Shown in pieces: positions 1 through 21,993 of a stretch of 47,405 nucleotides of DNA. Within the stretch, counting starts at the first letter, position 1. Each line of letters starts with the position of its first letter. The position numbers and the translations under genes are program-made. A model generated the notes under the pieces. It made no database searches. It worked only from the letters and a program-made list of their open reading frames with translations, and was not told where the DNA came from. This stretch comes from an uncultured Gammaproteobacteria bacterium (GTDB lineage Bacteria > Patescibacteriota > Patescibacteriia > Magasanikbacterales > UBA922), in NCBI GenBank assembly GCA_964519725.1, contig CAZFKS010000001.1, forward strand, positions 1-47,405, in the 5' to 3' direction.

Positions 1-55
1 AACCCGCGACCATCAGCTTAAAAGGCTGCTGCTCTACCAGCTGAGCTACCAGGTC
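1..55 (-). tRNA. tRNA-Lys (anticodon UUU), 3' portion cut by the window edge
   Basis: Reverse complement reads GACCTGG-TA-GCTC-AGCTGGTA-GAGC-A-GCAGC-CTTTTAA-GCTGA-TGGTC-GCGGGTT. That gives acceptor 5' arm, D arm, anticodon loop CU-UUU-AA and the start of the T arm, then the window ends. Confidence 0.85.
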
Positions 56-111: not shown

Positions 112-696
112 ATGAGTGGAATTGTGGATAAAAAGCTTTTTAGTCAGCTCAAGGCCGCTCAATTGGCCTATGCTGGTAAGCGCCGCGAAGTCATAAAACA
201 GAGCGGGGACGCCCAGCATCACGCTAAACGGGCTATTTTTGCCCTCCAGCGGGGTGATAACCAGGAGGCGACTGAGCGACTGGACTCAGCCCGGAAGATT
301 TTTACTCAGCTAGAAAAACAATATAAAAAAGACCCGGGTTTGTTTAGTGAGGGTTCATATCAGGCTGGCCTGGAAGAATTTGTAGAAGCGGATTTATTTC
401 GCCAATTTATTGAAACTAAAAAAATTGGGACCGTTCAAGGACTGAAAGTTTCTAATGATGTGTACATTGCCGGACTCTGCGACGTGCCAGGCGAATTGCA
501 ACGGTACGCGATTCGCGCCGCTACAAATCGTGATTTTAAATTGGCCAAAGAGTGTGCGGACGCTACCACGCAAATTTTACACGAACTGGTGGAATTTAAT
601 TTAACCTCGTATTTGCGGACTAAATTTGATCAAGCCAAACAAGCCATGCACCGTTTGGAACAAGTGGTGTACGAAACTTCGTTACGCGACAAATAA
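112..696 (+). CDS. translin-family protein (archaeal/CPR-type translin-like)
   Basis: 194-aa ORF. All-helical sequence with YIAGLCDVPGELQRYAI and a C-terminal LEQVVYETSL, resembling translin/TRAX signatures. TAACTT lies 8 nt upstream of the ATG. Confidence 0.6.
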   Translation: MSGIVDKKLFSQLKAAQLAYAGKRREVIKQSGDAQHHAKRAIFALQRGDNQEATERLDSARKIFTQLEKQYKKDPGLFSEGSYQAGLEEFVEADLFRQFIETKKIGTVQGLKVSNDVYIAGLCDVPGELQRYAIRAATNRDFKLAKECADATTQILHELVEFNLTSYLRTKFDQAKQAMHRLEQVVYETSLRDK

Positions 697-2609: not shown

Positions 2610-3308
2610 ATGACTGTCCTGCCTGGACCATTAATTTCGATTATTATTCCGGTGTATAATCGGCCGCTGGAATTTGCGGTCGCACTGGCGTCAGCGGAAG
2701 CGCAAGATTATTTGGCTAAGGAAATTATTGTGGTTGACGATGGCAGTGAGCCAGCGATTACAGTTTCAAATGAAACTATTAAATTAATTCGGCAGAAAAA
2801 TCAGGGTGCGCCTGTGGCGCGGAATGTGGGGGCTAGTTATGCCGCGGGTGAGTATGTAATTTTTTGGGACGCGGATATGACAGCACCAAAAAATTTAATT
2901 TCACAATTATTTTTTGCACTCCAAAATAATCCAGGCGCCAGTTATGCGTACTGTGATCACTGGTTTGGGGAGAAAAAAATGGCGGCCCAAATATTTGACG
3001 CCAAGAAATTAAAAGAACGCAATTACATTGCCACGCCAGCCTTAATTCGCAAAGTCGATTTTCCTGGTTTTGATCCTAGTTTAAAACGCTTTCAAGATTG
3101 GGATTTGTGGTTGACTATGCTCGAACAGAAGAAGGTGGGTGTGTATGTGCCAAATCTTGCGTACACGTTAAAACCAGGCGGAACCATGAGTTCATGGTTA
3201 CCAAAATATGCTTATATGGTGCCATTTAAATGGCTGCCCGGGTTCAAAGAAAAAGTTAAACGCTATGAGGCGGCGCGGCAGGTGATTGTAGAGAAACATA
3301 GTTTATAG
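2610..3308 (+). CDS. family 2 glycosyltransferase
   Basis: Start trimmed to the ATG at 2610, just after the murE stop. ISIIIPVYNRP, VVDDGS and FWDADM (DxD) are typical GT2 motifs. Confidence 0.8.
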   Translation: MTVLPGPLISIIIPVYNRPLEFAVALASAEAQDYLAKEIIVVDDGSEPAITVSNETIKLIRQKNQGAPVARNVGASYAAGEYVIFWDADMTAPKNLISQLFFALQNNPGASYAYCDHWFGEKKMAAQIFDAKKLKERNYIATPALIRKVDFPGFDPSLKRFQDWDLWLTMLEQKKVGVYVPNLAYTLKPGGTMSSWLPKYAYMVPFKWLPGFKEKVKRYEAARQVIVEKHSL

Positions 3309-4641
3309 CCACGAAGGTAAAGACGAAAAAGAGTACGCCAAAGCCCTGAAATAGGGCCGGCGTGGTGAGATTGATAATGCCAAGTGAAATTATGCCAGCT
3401 AAAAGGCCGCGTTCTAACGGCGCGGTTTTTTGATACGCAGCGCGGGCCAGTGGAAACAGGGCATAACCCAAACTGCCAAGCCAAATCACTGTGCCCAGAC
3501 TTCCCAGTTCAGCGAGCATTTCAAGATAGCCCCAATCAAATTGCGTGCGGGTGACACTTTGTTGAGTGACAGGATCAACATACGTAATCGTGGCGCCAAG
3601 GCCTGTTCCAAACCAAGGGTTGGTTTTAATTTGGCGGAGTGCGTCTGGTAAAATAGCCAAGCGAATTGCACCACTAACATCACTAGTTGGCGCGGCGGTG
3701 CCAAGTGCGCGGACACCAAGCAGTTCTAAACCAGTTGACCCTCCGCGACTAACAATGATATTTAGTGAAGTGAAAATAAGGGTCCAACCAATAACAGTAA
3801 TGGTCGAAACTTTTAACCATTGTTTTAGCGGTGCTTTAAAACCAAGGACAATTATGATCGCTGCTAGACTTAATAAATAAATGCGCGAAAAATTTAAGGC
3901 CAGAGTGGTTAAACTTAAACCAAGCCAGAGCCAATTTTTTTTCTCAGTTGGTTTGTAAATTAACCAGGCAATTAAAATCGCAATGATCGGTATGAGTAGG
4001 GTTTGTTCAGATAGTACCACACGGAAAAAATTGTGGCCCAAATCAGTGATTTTGCCGCCCGCACTGTTTCGAAACCAGTGGTAATAAAAATCAGGTAAAG
4101 TGCCAATTTTACTAGCGTAAAGGCCAAGTGTTAAAAGAGAGAAAAAGGTTGAACCAAGAATCCAAGTTTTGCCTGCCGTAATAATTTTATTTACTTCATA
4201 TTTATAGTCTAGAGCTGGAAAAAGCAGGGCAAAAAAACCAAACGCAATGGCGTCTTGCAATGCGGCTAATTTTGTATGACCAGAAATAAAACCATGGAAT
4301 AAACTAAATACAATAATTATTCCGGTGCAACTTAAAAAAAGTAATTGTTCTTTTGGTAAAACTTTAAAATTCATCTTGCCTTTTTTCTGCCCTAACCAAA
4401 CTGCGGCAAAAATTCCCAAAAACCAAGTGCGCAAAATCAGGCCCTGGAACTCAAAAAAATGTCCGGCCCCGCCCAGAAACAATTCAAATAATAAAATAAA
4501 CCAGGCCTGGCGCTGGTTTTTAAAGCAAATAAGCGTGAACACAATGATCGCAAGCCCGGCCAAAATTTCATTGGCCAGTAAAGTGTAAGTTAACAATGAC
4601 AAACCCCGCACTAAAACATAGCTGACAAAAAGAGTCAGCAT
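3256..4641 (-). CDS. O-antigen ligase/Wzy_C-family polytopic membrane protein
   Basis: 461 aa with at least 10 hydrophobic segments and a large loop carrying PWFGTGLGA. The 3' end overlaps the convergent GT2 gene by 53 nt. Confidence 0.65.
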   Translation of the reverse strand: MLTLFVSYVLVRGLSLLTYTLLANEILAGLAIIVFTLICFKNQRQAWFILLFELFLGGAGHFFEFQGLILRTWFLGIFAAVWLGQKKGKMNFKVLPKEQLLFLSCTGIIIVFSLFHGFISGHTKLAALQDAIAFGFFALLFPALDYKYEVNKIITAGKTWILGSTFFSLLTLGLYASKIGTLPDFYYHWFRNSAGGKITDLGHNFFRVVLSEQTLLIPIIAILIAWLIYKPTEKKNWLWLGLSLTTLALNFSRIYLLSLAAIIIVLGFKAPLKQWLKVSTITVIGWTLIFTSLNIIVSRGGSTGLELLGVRALGTAAPTSDVSGAIRLAILPDALRQIKTNPWFGTGLGATITYVDPVTQQSVTRTQFDWGYLEMLAELGSLGTVIWLGSLGYALFPLARAAYQKTAPLERGLLAGIISLGIINLTTPALFQGFGVLFFVFTFVAINYVSLQSPAAPPHSV

Positions 4642-11960: not shown

Positions 11961-13460
11961 ATGTCTAACTATTACCTAACCACCACGCTGCCGTATGTCA
12001 ACGCTGACCCGCATATTGGTTTTGCACTGGAAATTATTCAGGCTGATGTTTTGGCGCGCTACCAGCGGTTGTTAGGTAATACGGTTATTTTCAACACTGG
12101 GACAGACGAACATGGCCTGAAAATTTGGCGGAAAGCCCTGGAGCAAGAAATTAATCCACAAGCGTACTGTGATGAATATGCAGCTAGATTTAGTGCGCTA
12201 AAAGATGCCCTGAATTTAAGCTACACCCATTTTATTCGCACCACTGACCCAGAGCACAAAGCTGCAGCCCAGGAATTTTGGCGCCGGTGTGATGCGAATG
12301 GTTTTATTTACAAAAAACAATATCAAGTAAAATATTGTGTTGGTTGTGAATTAGAAAAAACTGATTCGGAATTAGTTGATGGTCGCTGTCCAATTCACCC
12401 AAAACTCGACATTGAATTTATTGAAGAGGAAAATTATTTTTTCAAGTTTTCTGCGTTCCAAGATAAGCTGTTGAAATTGTATGCGAGTAATCCAGAATTT
12501 GTGGTCCCAGCGAATCGTCAGGAAGAAATTAAAAAATTTGTTGAGCGCGGGCTGGAAGATTTTTCCATTTCTCGCCTCAAAGCCAAAATGCCGTGGGGCG
12601 TGCCCGTGCCTGGTGATGACGACCAAGTGATGTACGTCTGGTTTGATGCTCTGGTTAACTATATTTCTACGCTTGGTTGGCCAGGAAAAGGTGATTATGA
12701 AAATTTTTGGCCAGGCGTGCAAGTGGCAGGCAAAGATAATTTGCGCCAGCAATCTTCAATGTGGCAAGCCATGCTCATGGCCGCGGATTTGCCAACTTCC
12801 AAACAAATTTTTATTCACGGTTTTATTACAGTGAATGGTCAAAAAATTAGTAAATCACTCGGCAATGTAATTAATCCAATTGATTTGGTGCAAGAATTTG
12901 GGACTGACGCGGTGCGGTATTATTTGCTTGGCGCTTTGCCGGCCCATGAAGACGGGGATTATTCTCGGGAAAAATTTACTGAGTATTACACTGCGCACCT
13001 GGCCAATGGGATTGGAAATTTAACCTCACGTGTTTTGACCATGATTGAAAAATACGCTGATAATAGATGCCCAGCTGAAGCCGATGATATTTTTGAGGTA
13101 AAAACATTTTGGCAAAATTATGCAGCCGCAATTGGTGAGTATAAGTTTGATGATTTAATTAAAAATATTAACGAACTCGTCGCTAGAATTGATGGTGTGA
13201 TTTCCCAAGAAAAACCTTGGGAAAAAGCCAAAGCTGGCATTGATATCCAGCCACTGTTGTACCAAGTGACTGAAGGGTTGGCACACTTGGCCTTGGCCCT
13301 GTACCCAGTAATTCCTCGCGCGGCCGAAAAGATTTTATTGCAGCTTGGACTTGATCCACAAACAGCAACTATCAACAACCTCAAGTGGGGGGTGTTAAAA
13401 GAAGGTGCTATACTGAAAAAAGGTGAGCCACTTTTTCCTCGGCTGACCACAACTTCTTAA
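11961..13460 (+). CDS. metG: methionine--tRNA ligase (short form)
   Basis: HIGH-type PYVNADPHIGF, zinc knuckle CVGCE...CPIH, and KISKSLGN (KMSKS). Confidence 0.93.
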   Translation: MSNYYLTTTLPYVNADPHIGFALEIIQADVLARYQRLLGNTVIFNTGTDEHGLKIWRKALEQEINPQAYCDEYAARFSALKDALNLSYTHFIRTTDPEHKAAAQEFWRRCDANGFIYKKQYQVKYCVGCELEKTDSELVDGRCPIHPKLDIEFIEEENYFFKFSAFQDKLLKLYASNPEFVVPANRQEEIKKFVERGLEDFSISRLKAKMPWGVPVPGDDDQVMYVWFDALVNYISTLGWPGKGDYENFWPGVQVAGKDNLRQQSSMWQAMLMAADLPTSKQIFIHGFITVNGQKISKSLGNVINPIDLVQEFGTDAVRYYLLGALPAHEDGDYSREKFTEYYTAHLANGIGNLTSRVLTMIEKYADNRCPAEADDIFEVKTFWQNYAAAIGEYKFDDLIKNINELVARIDGVISQEKPWEKAKAGIDIQPLLYQVTEGLAHLALALYPVIPRAAEKILLQLGLDPQTATINNLKWGVLKEGAILKKGEPLFPRLTTTS

Positions 13461-14080: not shown

Positions 14081-14932
14081 ATGATTATTGATACCCACTG
14101 CCACATTCAATTTAAGGGTCAGGACACTGACCGCACGGAAATTATCAAACGCTCGCGCGCCCGCGGGATTATTTTTAATTTGGTGGGAACCCAAAAAGAC
14201 ACTAGTAAAAAGGGTGTTCTGCTCGCCATGGAAAATGATGACATGTACGCTAGTCTTGGCACTCACCCAAATCATTTATTTCCCACTCACATTGATGAAG
14301 AAGAAAGCCACTTCCTGTCACGCGAAGAGGATTTTGATGAAGCGTATTACGAAGAAGTTTTTAATTTAGCACCCGAAAAAGTAATTGGGGTCGGGGAATG
14401 TGGCTTGGATTTATTTCATTTGCCGCCTGATGTTTCTGTAGAAAAAGTTTTAGAAAAACAAAAATTGGTTTTTAAAAAACACGTGCAGTTTGCGATCAAA
14501 CATGATTTACCACTCGTGATTCATGTTCGTGACGCTCATGATCACATGATAAAACTTTTAAAAGAAATTGAACTGCCCGCTCGGCGCGGTACAATTCACT
14601 GTTACACTGGCAACTGGGCTGATGCGCAGGAATATTTAAAACTTGGATTTTACTTAGGTTTTACGGGCGTAATAACTTTTCCAGTTAAAAAAACTAATCC
14701 AGCACAGCAAGAATCTCTGTGGGAAGTAATTCAAAAAATGCCTGAAGATCGGATTTTGGTGGAAACTGATGCCCCGTATTTGGCCCCACAAAAATATCGG
14801 GGTGAGCGTTGTGAGCCGTGGATGACTGAAGAGAATGTTATGAAAATTGCTGCACTGCGCGGTAAACCTGCCGCTGAAATGGAAGAGATTATTTTTGCCA
14901 ATACAAAGCGGTTGTTTAATAAGATTAAGTGA
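14081..14932 (+). CDS. tatD: TatD-family metal-dependent hydrolase/DNase
   Basis: MIIDTHCH, GECGLD, VIHVRDA and ETDAPYL. Start moved from the track's TTG (14072) to the ATG at 14081. Confidence 0.88.
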   Translation: MIIDTHCHIQFKGQDTDRTEIIKRSRARGIIFNLVGTQKDTSKKGVLLAMENDDMYASLGTHPNHLFPTHIDEEESHFLSREEDFDEAYYEEVFNLAPEKVIGVGECGLDLFHLPPDVSVEKVLEKQKLVFKKHVQFAIKHDLPLVIHVRDAHDHMIKLLKEIELPARRGTIHCYTGNWADAQEYLKLGFYLGFTGVITFPVKKTNPAQQESLWEVIQKMPEDRILVETDAPYLAPQKYRGERCEPWMTEENVMKIAALRGKPAAEMEEIIFANTKRLFNKIK

Positions 14933-14955
14933 TTTTTACCGCCTCAGCTCAACTA

Positions 14956-14989
14956 AAAAAGCCCGGCAATTTGCTGGGCTTTTTCTTTT
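14956..14989. terminator. bidirectional intrinsic terminator
   Basis: An A-run, then GCCCGGCA-att-TGCTGGGC (8-bp stem with one G:U), then a T-run. Placed between tatD (+) and the small minus-strand ORF. Confidence 0.7.
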
Positions 14990-15179
14990 AGAAACTTAGA
15001 CGGCAGGAGGCTGAAACACTGCCGCGCTTGTCAAAAGAACAAGCGGATGATTGAGATCACGAATATCGCGATGATTATCGTGGTCACGATCGGGCCTGGT
15101 TGCGGTGGCGCGGGACGGCGCCGACGGTAAGCCATACGGCCTCCTTTCTGGAGCAGTTTCAGCCCCGTCTAAATTTCTA
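14989..15179. repeat. G+C-rich about 190-bp element bounded by imperfect 27/34-bp inverted repeats
   Basis: Left arm 14989-15022 is TAGAAACTTAGACGG[CAGGA]GGCTGAAAC[A]CTGC. The reverse complement of 15153-15179 is TAGAAATTTAGACGG-GGCTGAAA-CTGC. Each arm ends in TA. Confidence 0.6.
15031..15135 (-). CDS. candidate 34-aa small membrane peptide MAYRRRRPAPPQPGPIVTTIIIAIFVISIIRLFF
   Basis: AAGGAGG (15140-15146) lies 4 nt upstream of the ATG at 15135. The peptide has an Arg/Pro-rich head and one TM helix. 24 of 34 codons end in G/C (Ile is ATC x6, ATA x2, ATT x0). This is a different frame from the 62-aa track ORF. Confidence 0.45.
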   Translation of the reverse strand: MAYRRRRPAPPQPGPIVTTIIIAIFVISIIRLFF

Positions 15180-15214
15180 TACACTGTGACTAAACTTTTT
15201 TACCATATATTAGC

Positions 15215-15243
15215 TTGTTTTTCAATACTAAACCACCTATAAT
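15215..15243 (+). promoter_or_regulatory. promoter of ligA (TTGTTT-17-TATAAT)
   Basis: Consensus -10 at 15238-15243, 19 nt upstream of the ATG at 15263. Confidence 0.5.
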
Positions 15244-15247
15244 TTAG

Positions 15248-17293
<2,046 letters not shown>

Positions 17294-21891: not shown

Positions 21892-21976
21892 GGAGAGGTC
21901 GCATAGTGGCCTAGTGCGCCGCCTTGGAAAGGCGGTATACCGCAAGGTATCGAGGGTTCAAATCCCTCCCTCTCCG
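21892..21976 (+). tRNA. tRNA-Ser (anticodon GGA)
   Basis: GGAGAGG acceptor pairing with CCTCTCC, anticodon loop TT-GGA-AA, long variable arm TATACCGCAAGGTAT and T loop GGTTCAAATCC. CCA is not encoded. Confidence 0.9.
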
Positions 21977-21993
21977 CATAATTATTAAGTTTT

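Follow-up and report, generated by a model that had tools for sequence, protein, structure and literature searches.

In Bacillus subtilis, a 14-nt interaction that links the 5' and 3' untranslated regions (UTRs) of the hbs mRNA, located just upstream of the terminator, has been shown with compensatory mutants to restrict cleavage by RNase Y (Braun, Durand and Condon 2017, PMC5737220). The hok mRNA is closed by a long-distance fold-back between its 5' and 3' ends (PMC9841398), and in Staphylococcus aureus icaR a duplex of the 5' and 3' UTRs is a substrate of RNase III, with the 3'-UTR motif UCCCCUG pairing with the Shine-Dalgarno sequence (SD) (Ruiz de los Mozos et al. 2013, PMC3868564). Comparative evidence for such end-to-end pairing of mRNAs is rare. 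Here we describe a 191-bp element at positions 14989-15179 of a 47,405-nt contig (GenBank CAZFKS010000001.1; the whole stretch is called the window below) from the Magasanikbacterales, a group within the Candidate Phyla Radiation (CPR) of bacteria. It consists of a short open reading frame (ORF) enclosed by two arms that are predicted to pair as the ends of a single mRNA.

The comparison with related genomes shows a conserved, covarying and strand-biased helix that links the 5' and 3' UTRs predicted for a monocistronic unit, regardless of the cargo of that unit. It is a variant of the 5'/3'-UTR closing interactions, notable for its comparative support and for its independence from the enclosed gene. 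The element would be the central part of a small minus-strand unit that is transcribed independently and comprises a promoter, a 5' arm, an ORF with its SD, a 3' arm and a terminator. The arms would be the 5' and 3' untranslated ends of one mRNA, paired in two stems, the outer of 15-18 bp and the inner of 9 bp, with a 5-nt bulge between them on the 3' strand. In the window, the parts in the order of the predicted transcript are:

15197-15225, minus strand: putative promoter, inferred and possibly weak, with a -35 TTGAAA at 15225-15220, a 17-nt spacer and a -10 TAAAAA at 15202-15197
15165-15179, minus strand: 5' strand of the outer closing helix, RNA UAGAAAUUUAGACGG, from the inverted-repeat scan, the fold and the alignment of relatives
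15156-15164, minus strand: 5' strand of the inner 9-bp helix, GGCUGAAAC, from the fold and the alignment of relatives
15140-15146, minus strand: SD AAGGAGG, 4 nt before the ATG, as read from the sequence
15031-15135, minus strand: 34-codon orphan ORF with its start at 15135, encoding MAYRRRRPAPPQPGPIVTTIIIAIFVISIIRLFF (cargo type C below)
15009-15017, minus strand: 3' strand of the inner 9-bp helix, GUUUCAGCC, from the fold and the alignment of relatives
15004-15008, minus strand: 5-nt pyrimidine-rich bulge UCCUG on the 3' strand, separating the outer from the inner helix
14989-15003, minus strand: 3' strand of the outer closing helix, CCGUCUAAGUUUCUA, from the inverted-repeat scan and the alignment of relatives
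14950-14988, both strands: bidirectional intrinsic terminator with its hairpin at 14956-14984 and a U-run on each strand (14-nt inverted repeat, 93%), which forms in the transcript fold

Read along the minus strand, 14989-15179 is ordered UAGAAAUUUAGACGG-GGCUGAAAC-SD-N4-AUG, 34 codons, UGA, GUUUCAGCC-UCCUG-CCGUCUAAGUUUCUA. An earlier reading of this DNA, made from its letters alone (the original prediction), had described the minus-strand ORF with AAGGAGG-N4-ATG, and both are present as described. On translation, the encoded peptide MAYRRRRPAPPQPGPIVTTIIIAIFVISIIRLFF has a cationic N-terminus followed by a single hydrophobic helix. The outer arms are complementary at 14 of 15 positions, and the odd T/C position becomes a U•G pair on the minus-strand RNA only, again as predicted. 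The proposed pairing of 15+8+4 holds for the outer 15; the second helix has 9 bp, so that 15+9 takes the place of the '8+4'. The bidirectional terminator had also been recognised correctly, and it is predicted to end the minus-strand transcript of the module 4 nt past the 3' arm as well as plus-strand tatD. As to the promoter, none had been found convincing; there is, however, the putative TTGAAA-17-TAAAAA listed above, which a promoter scanner does not flag because position 6 of its -10 is not T. It has a spacer that ends in TGG (an extended -10), a predicted transcription start site (TSS) near 15190 and a distance of 15 nt to the 17-nt outer arm, the same spacing as for the promoters of the relatives L121, L128 and L124.

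When the minus-strand transcript is folded, a check that the original prediction had proposed, the closing helix appears in the minimum free energy (MFE) structure, and the full predicted window transcript (z = -8.1) retains both the closing helix and the terminator. The duplex by itself (15 bp, 5-nt bulge, 9 bp) has a ΔG of -33.7 kcal/mol. The element folds at -82.2 kcal/mol, compared with -55.2 ± 4.4 for shuffled sequences (z = -6.2); for the element and the transcript alike, 0 of 200 shuffles reach the same stability. Its opposite strand also folds well (z = -7.3). The helix is found in both the MFE and the centroid structures of every full predicted transcript from the window and its relatives, over lengths of 239-734 nt and with z between -6 and -10. 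The window contains 34 long-range pairs of at least 14 nt, so a lone 15-nt inverted repeat is not beyond chance, unlike the composite helix; the case rests on that helix and on the comparison with other genomes, in which its recurrence with covariation in five further lineages is decisive.

Long-range pairing next to terminators was not enriched over a composition-matched control among the 842 terminators that we screened, and a terminator-adjacent 5'/3' helix is not a general design in these genomes. The same screen picked up two compact strong helices near terminators, one at about 12020-12170 (+) of L134 (-52.8 vs -28.4 kcal/mol in the control) and one at about 215-344 (+) of L149 (-40.1 vs -19.1 kcal/mol). 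Each covers roughly 100-120 nt and could be either a structured RNA or a large terminator.

Contigs of relatives (designated by L and a number) were chosen by a TatD 78-90% identical to that of the window, and 160 LigA-anchored loci from GTDB genomes and JGI metagenomes were added. A paired-arm search over 2.17 Mb of related DNA, with up to 2 mismatches per arm, located arm pairs between tatD and ligA in the window, L121, L123 (on the same contig as L208), L124 and L128; the remaining pairs, 2-mismatch matches no better than chance, were left aside. In L290 the 3' arm is present and the contig ends shortly after it. The helix is thus found in five other related lineages of Ca. Magasanikbacteria, always between tatD and ligA. 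The enclosed ORF points away from ligA in every case, and this orientation is uniform, including in L125, which comes from a second sample. All share one layout, namely promoter, 15 nt, 5' arm, leader with SD, ORF, 3' UTR, 3' arm and terminator. The promoter lies 15 nt upstream of the 5' arm in all four complete relative copies; those called by the scanner in L121 and L128 read TTGACA-17-TATACT (11/12, with an extended -10, TG), and that of L124 reads TTGACA-17-TAGTCT. A terminator follows 4-15 nt past the 3' arm in every lineage (the scanner calls one directly after the 3' arm of L121), and the terminator sequences of L121, L123, L124, L128 and L290 are analogous to that of the window but unrelated to it. 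The enclosed genes are of three types:

Cargo type A, in L121, L123 and L128: homologous proteins of 114-176 aa with a signal peptide and a lipobox (…LAGC/FSGC-GNWN…)
Cargo type B, in L124, L125 and L290: a 167-aa protein unrelated to type A (…ALCSGC…)
Cargo type C, in the window: the 34-aa ORF

By tblastn, no homologue of the cargos was detected elsewhere in the related DNA analysed; the sole match of a database search with type A was the L128 contig itself, and Pfam holds no family for type A or type B. The cargo regions are GC-rich against hosts of 40-45%, with 54.5% in window:14989-15179 (the whole window has 42.6%), 60.5% in L121:5421-6066, 57.3% in L123:3820-4346, 51.4% in L124:6398-7049 and 53.7% in L128:8860-9550. 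This suggests either a foreign origin or a composition bias rich in Pro, Arg and Gly. Lgt (prolipoprotein diacylglyceryl transferase) is encoded at window:20685-21434 (+), 5 kb from the module, which gives the organism the means to lipidate lipobox proteins like those of cargo types A and B. In type-A loci, the stretch from the module to ligA contains a second, small minus-strand ORF, about 55 aa long (MTKNATPVTPPDQ… in L128), located at L128:9640-9900, L121:6150-6390 and L123:4427-4690, with a long, partly conserved hairpin terminator behind it; this ORF is absent from the window and L124.

The helix itself takes the following forms:

Window: outer stem 15 bp, bulge UCCUG, inner stem GGCUGAAAC / GUUUCAGCC
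L124: outer stem 18 bp, bulge CCCUU, inner stem AUGGUGCUA / UAGCACCAU
L121: outer stem 17 bp, bulge CCCAU, inner stem ACAGUGUAG / CUACACUGU
L123 and L128: outer stem 16 bp, bulge CCCAU, inner stem as in L121

The bulge, which is CCCUU in L290, keeps its position and its 5-nt length across all lineages. The inner stem occurs in three unrelated sequences (GGCUGAAAC, AUGGUGCUA and ACAGUGUAG), each with all 9 pairs kept. In a mini-alignment of the helices, 98.1% of cells are paired, compared with 33-45% after the partner strand has been shifted by 1-3 columns; both sides have changed in 12 of 26 pairs, among them 9/9 of the inner pairs, and 0 of 500 shuffles reach the observed values. The outer stem is nearly invariant. 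Its 5' strand in the window, UAGAAAUUUAGACGG, is the same in L124 and differs by two compensated changes in L121, L123 and L128, and an A-U pair is replaced by a compensated G-C at outer position 4. The two positions without a Watson-Crick pair have G•U on the ORF (minus) strand, one a U•G common to every lineage and the second a G•U that is stable in the three type-A lineages. Duplex energies on this strand are -33.7, -34.9 and -36.0 kcal/mol, and on the opposite strand they are 4-8 kcal/mol weaker, at -28.0 to -31.0. Invariance along the unit was measured over the three type-A lineages (L121, L123 and L128), whose proteins are about 68% identical:

Promoter: 86% invariant columns
Leader plus 5' arm: 92% invariant columns
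3' arm (30 nt): 100% invariant columns
Core of the coding sequence: 59% invariant columns
C-terminal part of the coding sequence: 9% invariant columns
Terminator region: 25% invariant columns

By these alignments, the helix is under strong purifying and compensatory selection, irrespective of the ORF that it encloses. In effect, this CPR lineage has carried out a natural compensatory-mutation experiment, with three unrelated inner stems, compensated outer changes, a near-constant energy, and ends far more conserved than the gene between them.

We think it fairly probable that the helix is an mRNA end clamp, that is, a cis-acting closing helix between 5' and 3' UTR that controls ribonuclease access, placed around an ORF slot that is prone to swapping. 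At about -34 to -36 kcal/mol, it would tie the transcript ends together directly upstream of the terminator hairpin and would act in cis and post-transcriptionally, through the access that it gives to ribonucleases. It could do so in one of two ways: by shielding the 5' and 3' ends, like the hbs 5'/3'-UTR interaction, or by offering RNase III a duplex of about 25 bp, bulged on one side, for processing. Sequestration of the SD does not appear to be its mode of action. The assignment of the fold-back to the minus-strand RNA, as a pairing of its 5' and 3' UTRs, had been part of the original prediction, and it is borne out by the covariation, by the G•U pairs on that strand alone and by the promoter and terminator just outside the arms. 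Complementary leader and 3'-UTR segments lie between the predicted TSS and the terminator, as in known 5'/3'-UTR interactions, and here their pairing shows compensatory changes. The case suggests that mRNA end clamping can be a portable, gene-independent expression device.

The locus has most in common with hbs, in that leader and 3' UTR pair directly upstream of an intrinsic terminator, the mRNA is short and monocistronic, the whole ORF is enclosed and the SD is uninvolved. However, hbs has a single 14-bp stem of -19 kcal/mol, whereas the helix described here is in two parts, with 24-27 bp and a fixed 5-nt bulge; it is also long enough for an RNase III substrate, and it is kept while the gene is replaced. 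With icaR it shares a C-rich motif in the 3' UTR (UCCCCUG in icaR; the bulges UCCUG, CCCUU and CCCAU here), but the C-rich pentamer is here an unpaired bulge, and a pairing with the SD is seen in the window only, at chance level. Processing stems for RNase III are also formed by the sequences flanking 16S and 23S rRNA, and they occur in the early mRNAs of phage T7. Those are likewise long helices of at least two helical turns, with a bulge or internal loop, made from sequences that flank a whole functional RNA; they flank stable RNAs or polycistronic phage messages, unlike the present helix.

Several points weigh against the end clamp. Compensatory change in an inverted repeat is expected for DNA-level sites too, and the RNA-specific support consists of two independent G•U events, with a chance of about 1 in 4. 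The outer stem is conserved in sequence, not in pairing alone, and therefore points to recognition by a protein, which could equally be a DNA-binding one. Stabilisation, RNase III cleavage or some other downstream effect cannot be told apart by computation, and there is no RNase III gene in the 47-kb window. The TSS, the 3' end and the processing of the transcript are all predictions. In the window, the -10 hexamer TAAAAA is poor and unflagged by the promoter scanner, and this copy may be weakly expressed or decaying. Finally, the sample is small: the six lineages, all of one narrow clade, give four different helix sequences.

The 34-aa ORF would be the present occupant of the expression slot, and its sequence is compatible either with a small membrane peptide specific to this lineage or with what remains of a larger gene for a secreted protein. 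In the second case, an internal deletion in a full secreted-protein gene would have left the helix, the SD and a functionless, signal-peptide-like stub of 34 codons. We regard such decay as possible, though it remains tentative. The charged N-region and hydrophobic core resemble a signal or anchor with a stop codon directly after it, the cargo between the inner helices is 137 nt long while the arms of the relatives are 492-672 nt apart, and the -10 hexamer is degenerate; the helix, on the other hand, is intact at -33.7 kcal/mol, the SD is the strongest among the lineages and the ORF is open. The absence of homologues of the peptide would also fit a remnant. There is no exact protein record for the peptide (nor for the TatD or LigA of the window), a 40-aa in-frame extension of it has no word-sharing candidate among 5.8 billion proteins, index-free phmmer gave 0 matches among 1.84 billion representatives, and a Pfam scan gave no match. 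At the same time, no similarity to type-A or type-B cargo is left on either strand, and the inner helix is a third distinct sequence, so that no parent gene can be identified. Decay of this kind concerns the cargo only and is compatible with the end clamp as the explanation of the helix.

The 24-nt junction of the tatD terminator with the outer arm, TTTTTCTTTTAGAAACTTAGACGG, is identical in the window and L290, with total divergence from the bulge inward; cargo and inner helix have therefore been replaced within a conserved frame. Such an exchange boundary at the outer arm would be expected if the repeats were DNA-level recombination signals, which is the main rival to the end clamp. A recombinase encoded elsewhere would recognise the 15-nt outer repeats of an exchangeable or invertible cassette, and the outcome would be either inversion of the gene relative to a fixed promoter, giving phase variation of a surface lipoprotein, or cassette exchange at the expression site. 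Site-specific inversion that switches surface lipoproteins is established in Mycoplasma (PMC2268961), and three unrelated cargos are found in the same frame in close relatives, every one of them GC-rich compared with its host, at a junction that is empty in L292, L129 and L289. The outer arm, moreover, is conserved in more than its pairing. Yet the orientation is the same in the window, L121, L123, L124, L125, L128 and L290, and inversion would merely turn the gene off, as no alternative gene reaches the promoter. A Pfam scan of about 50 window genes found no recombinase, transposase, reverse transcriptase or RNase III, none of the genes called at the relatives' loci encodes a recombinase either, and the 2.17 Mb of related DNA contain no silent cassettes or extra arm copies. 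An inner helix that varies in sequence at a constant 9 bp, a fixed bulge, a kept G•U and a near-constant energy are features of a folded strand and unexpected in recombinase sites. We therefore rate this explanation, together with the inversion or exchange that would follow from it, as unlikely.

Rather more doubtful, and drawn by analogy, is a reading that combines the two functions. By this reading, the two-part helix would indicate a specialised place in CPR bacteria where genes for small secreted proteins are exchanged. Each cassette, with an inner 9-bp stem of its own and the invariant 15-nt outer arms at its limits, would move between genomes or loci into a promoter-terminator site that stays fixed. 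As boundaries of the cassette or as recombination signals, the folded arms would play the part that single-stranded, folded attC sites have in integrons, in addition to being an mRNA clamp. If true, surface variation in episymbiotic bacteria would here rely on a cassette system that has not been described before.

The original prediction had favoured a type I toxin-like module or a MITE (miniature inverted-repeat transposable element). It had pointed out the sequence GCCUCCU in the 3' strand of the window helix, which is indeed an exact complement of AGGAGGC at the SD, and from which it derived a toggle between the end-to-end helix and a fold with a sequestered SD. The comparison does not support this toggle: the anti-SD pairing is restricted to the window, where it amounts to -14.1 kcal/mol, a value that 17% of shuffles also reach, and in L121, L123, L124 and L128, the four other lineages, SD pairing is no better than in shuffled sequence. 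The SD is neither within the closing helix nor sequestered by it; in the MFE structure of the window its GGAG pairs with a nearby CUCC in a 4-bp hairpin. In the full toxin scheme, the peptide would attack the membrane as a toxin, the 5'-3' fold-back would hold its mRNA inactive until processing activates it, and the C-rich bulge would be the alternative anti-SD. The size and composition of the peptide fit type I toxins, the SD is strong and a stable end-to-end helix surrounds the ORF, a form of closure that is documented for the hok mRNA (PMC9841398). However, the helix is ancestral to the slot, and it is not a toxin-specific device, because the same helix encloses ordinary lipoprotein-like ORFs of 114-176 aa, hence non-toxin mRNAs, in the five relatives. 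The peptide frame, whose conservation in homologous elements had been named as a check, is not conserved there, nor is a small hydrophobic ORF or SD sequestration, and the peptide is a single copy. No antisense-RNA promoter had been predicted, and our scan agrees: it returned one plus-strand site, TTGAGA-16-GATTAT at 15051-15078, which at 9/12 is of chance frequency (1.2 expected), lies inside the 34-aa ORF and has no terminator behind it, though in principle an antisense RNA could start there. Compared with hok/Sok (tac/fbi) and Helicobacter pylori aapA1, the likeness is that a 5'/3' helix closes the full-length mRNA of an ORF for a small hydrophobic peptide. In hok, though, the closure enforces SD sequestration via ucb, 3' processing triggers refolding and Sok is the antisense RNA, whereas here the SD is outside the helix, the anti-SD match is unconserved, no antisense gene is detectable and relatives have lipoprotein genes in the same place. 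Overall, a toxin module is very improbable.

The search for other copies of the arms, likewise proposed in the original prediction, yielded none: there is no second copy of the element in the window, and in the 2.17 Mb of relatives the arm pair is confined to the tatD-ligA site. Compared with phages, the element DNA gave no match, and with plasmids chance fragments of 28-49 nt only; in viral contigs the 15-mer arm had single chance-level matches, with no partner arm of fewer than 2-3 mismatches nearby. A MITE, or a non-autonomous transposon carrying a cargo, with 15-nt terminal inverted repeats, a TA target duplication and an IS630/Tc1-type transposase acting in trans, can be all but dismissed as an explanation of the element despite the repeats that end in TA, the empty junctions of relatives and the GC-rich interior, given its single copy per genome fragment (six occurrences, one locus, one orientation), the lack of a transposase among the window genes, flanks that vary between lineages with no consistent target duplication, empty sites (L292, L129 and L289) that are without the whole islet, promoter and terminator included, a promoter just outside the arms that is as conserved as the arms, and a 5-nt bulge and lineage-specific inner repeat unlike the end repeats of transposons. 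MITEs (Correia/NEMIS, ERIC, RUP) and the Mycoplasma vpma/Xer1 system (PMC2268961) are alike in having inverted repeats that bracket a short segment, or variable surface lipoproteins; the present unit differs in its single copy, its fixed locus and orientation, the absence of a transposase or recombinase nearby and of a multigene family. For annotation, the lesson is that a type I toxin should not be called from a small hydrophobic ORF in a fold-back alone, nor a MITE from inverted repeats that merely form a pair.

Rfam scans at gathering thresholds over the whole window and L121, L123, L124 and L127 gave no match on the element, and in a scan of 14850-15350 at E<=10 the weak matches were all on the terminator hairpin and none on the element. 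Among other candidates, we dropped a retron non-coding RNA (no reverse transcriptase, and proteins encoded inside the helix in relatives), a 6S, RNase P or tmRNA-like RNA (no Rfam match, and a size that varies from 190 to 690 nt), an integron attC site (an ORF inside the hairpin, and no R-box) and CsrA sites (GGA motifs not conserved in the window or L124).

The unit lies in a variable islet between tatD and ligA, in one genus-level subclade of Ca. Magasanikbacteria. In the window, its neighbours are housekeeping genes: a TP_methylase-family gene, metG, cvpA and tatD precede it, and ligA, gatC and gatA lie beyond it. The names borne by homologues of its TatD place the window in Ca. Magasanikbacteria, within Patescibacteria/CPR. 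Linkage of tatD and ligA was found in 12 of the related loci examined, and in L292, L129 and L289 the two genes abut (0-9 nt apart); direct adjacency is probably ancestral, because the abutting loci include the most distant members. Other lineages fill the interval with NUDIX, NYN or other genes, as in L127 and L131, more distant Magasanikbacteria that have such genes there in co-directional order and no enclosed module. The device thus appears, among the sequences compared, confined to one locus of one narrow CPR clade. Phage 'morons' are autonomous promoter-ORF-terminator units inserted between genes that are adjacent in relatives. The present unit is similarly self-contained, has an unusual GC content, encodes a small lipoprotein or membrane protein and lies between genes that abut elsewhere; it differs in being chromosomal in a CPR bacterium with no phage genes nearby, and morons are not defined by an end-to-end helix. 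The tatD-ligA interval is, in any case, a small variable locus with turnover of surface lipoprotein genes, in bacteria presumed to live attached to host cells.

In two close relatives, the Logan contigs stop 80-240 nt after tatD (L288:5853-6089 and L290:4137-4216), and these contig ends at the edge of the islet could reflect strain heterogeneity or an assembly break. Between cvpA and tatD, L121 has an inserted 153-aa ORF, unannotated, with an adenosylcobalamin (AdoCbl, cobalamin) riboswitch upstream of it at 3286-3417 (+) (Rfam RF01482, 65 bits, E = 5.5e-10); the window lacks this riboswitch. Elsewhere in the window, a Translin-family protein is encoded at 112-696 (+) (Pfam PF01997, E = 3e-21), which is unusual in a bacterium, the family being mainly eukaryotic and archaeal. 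A run of about 10 small co-directional genes at window:22999-28349 (+), with members of the glyoxalase/VOC, 3-dmu-9_3-mt, DUF1801, DUF2200, DUF1761 and OmdA families, looks like a paralogous cluster of detoxification type. The window also carries a partial tRNA at 1-55 (-) and a tRNA-Ser(GGA) at 21892-21977 (+), downstream of lgt and NUDIX genes.

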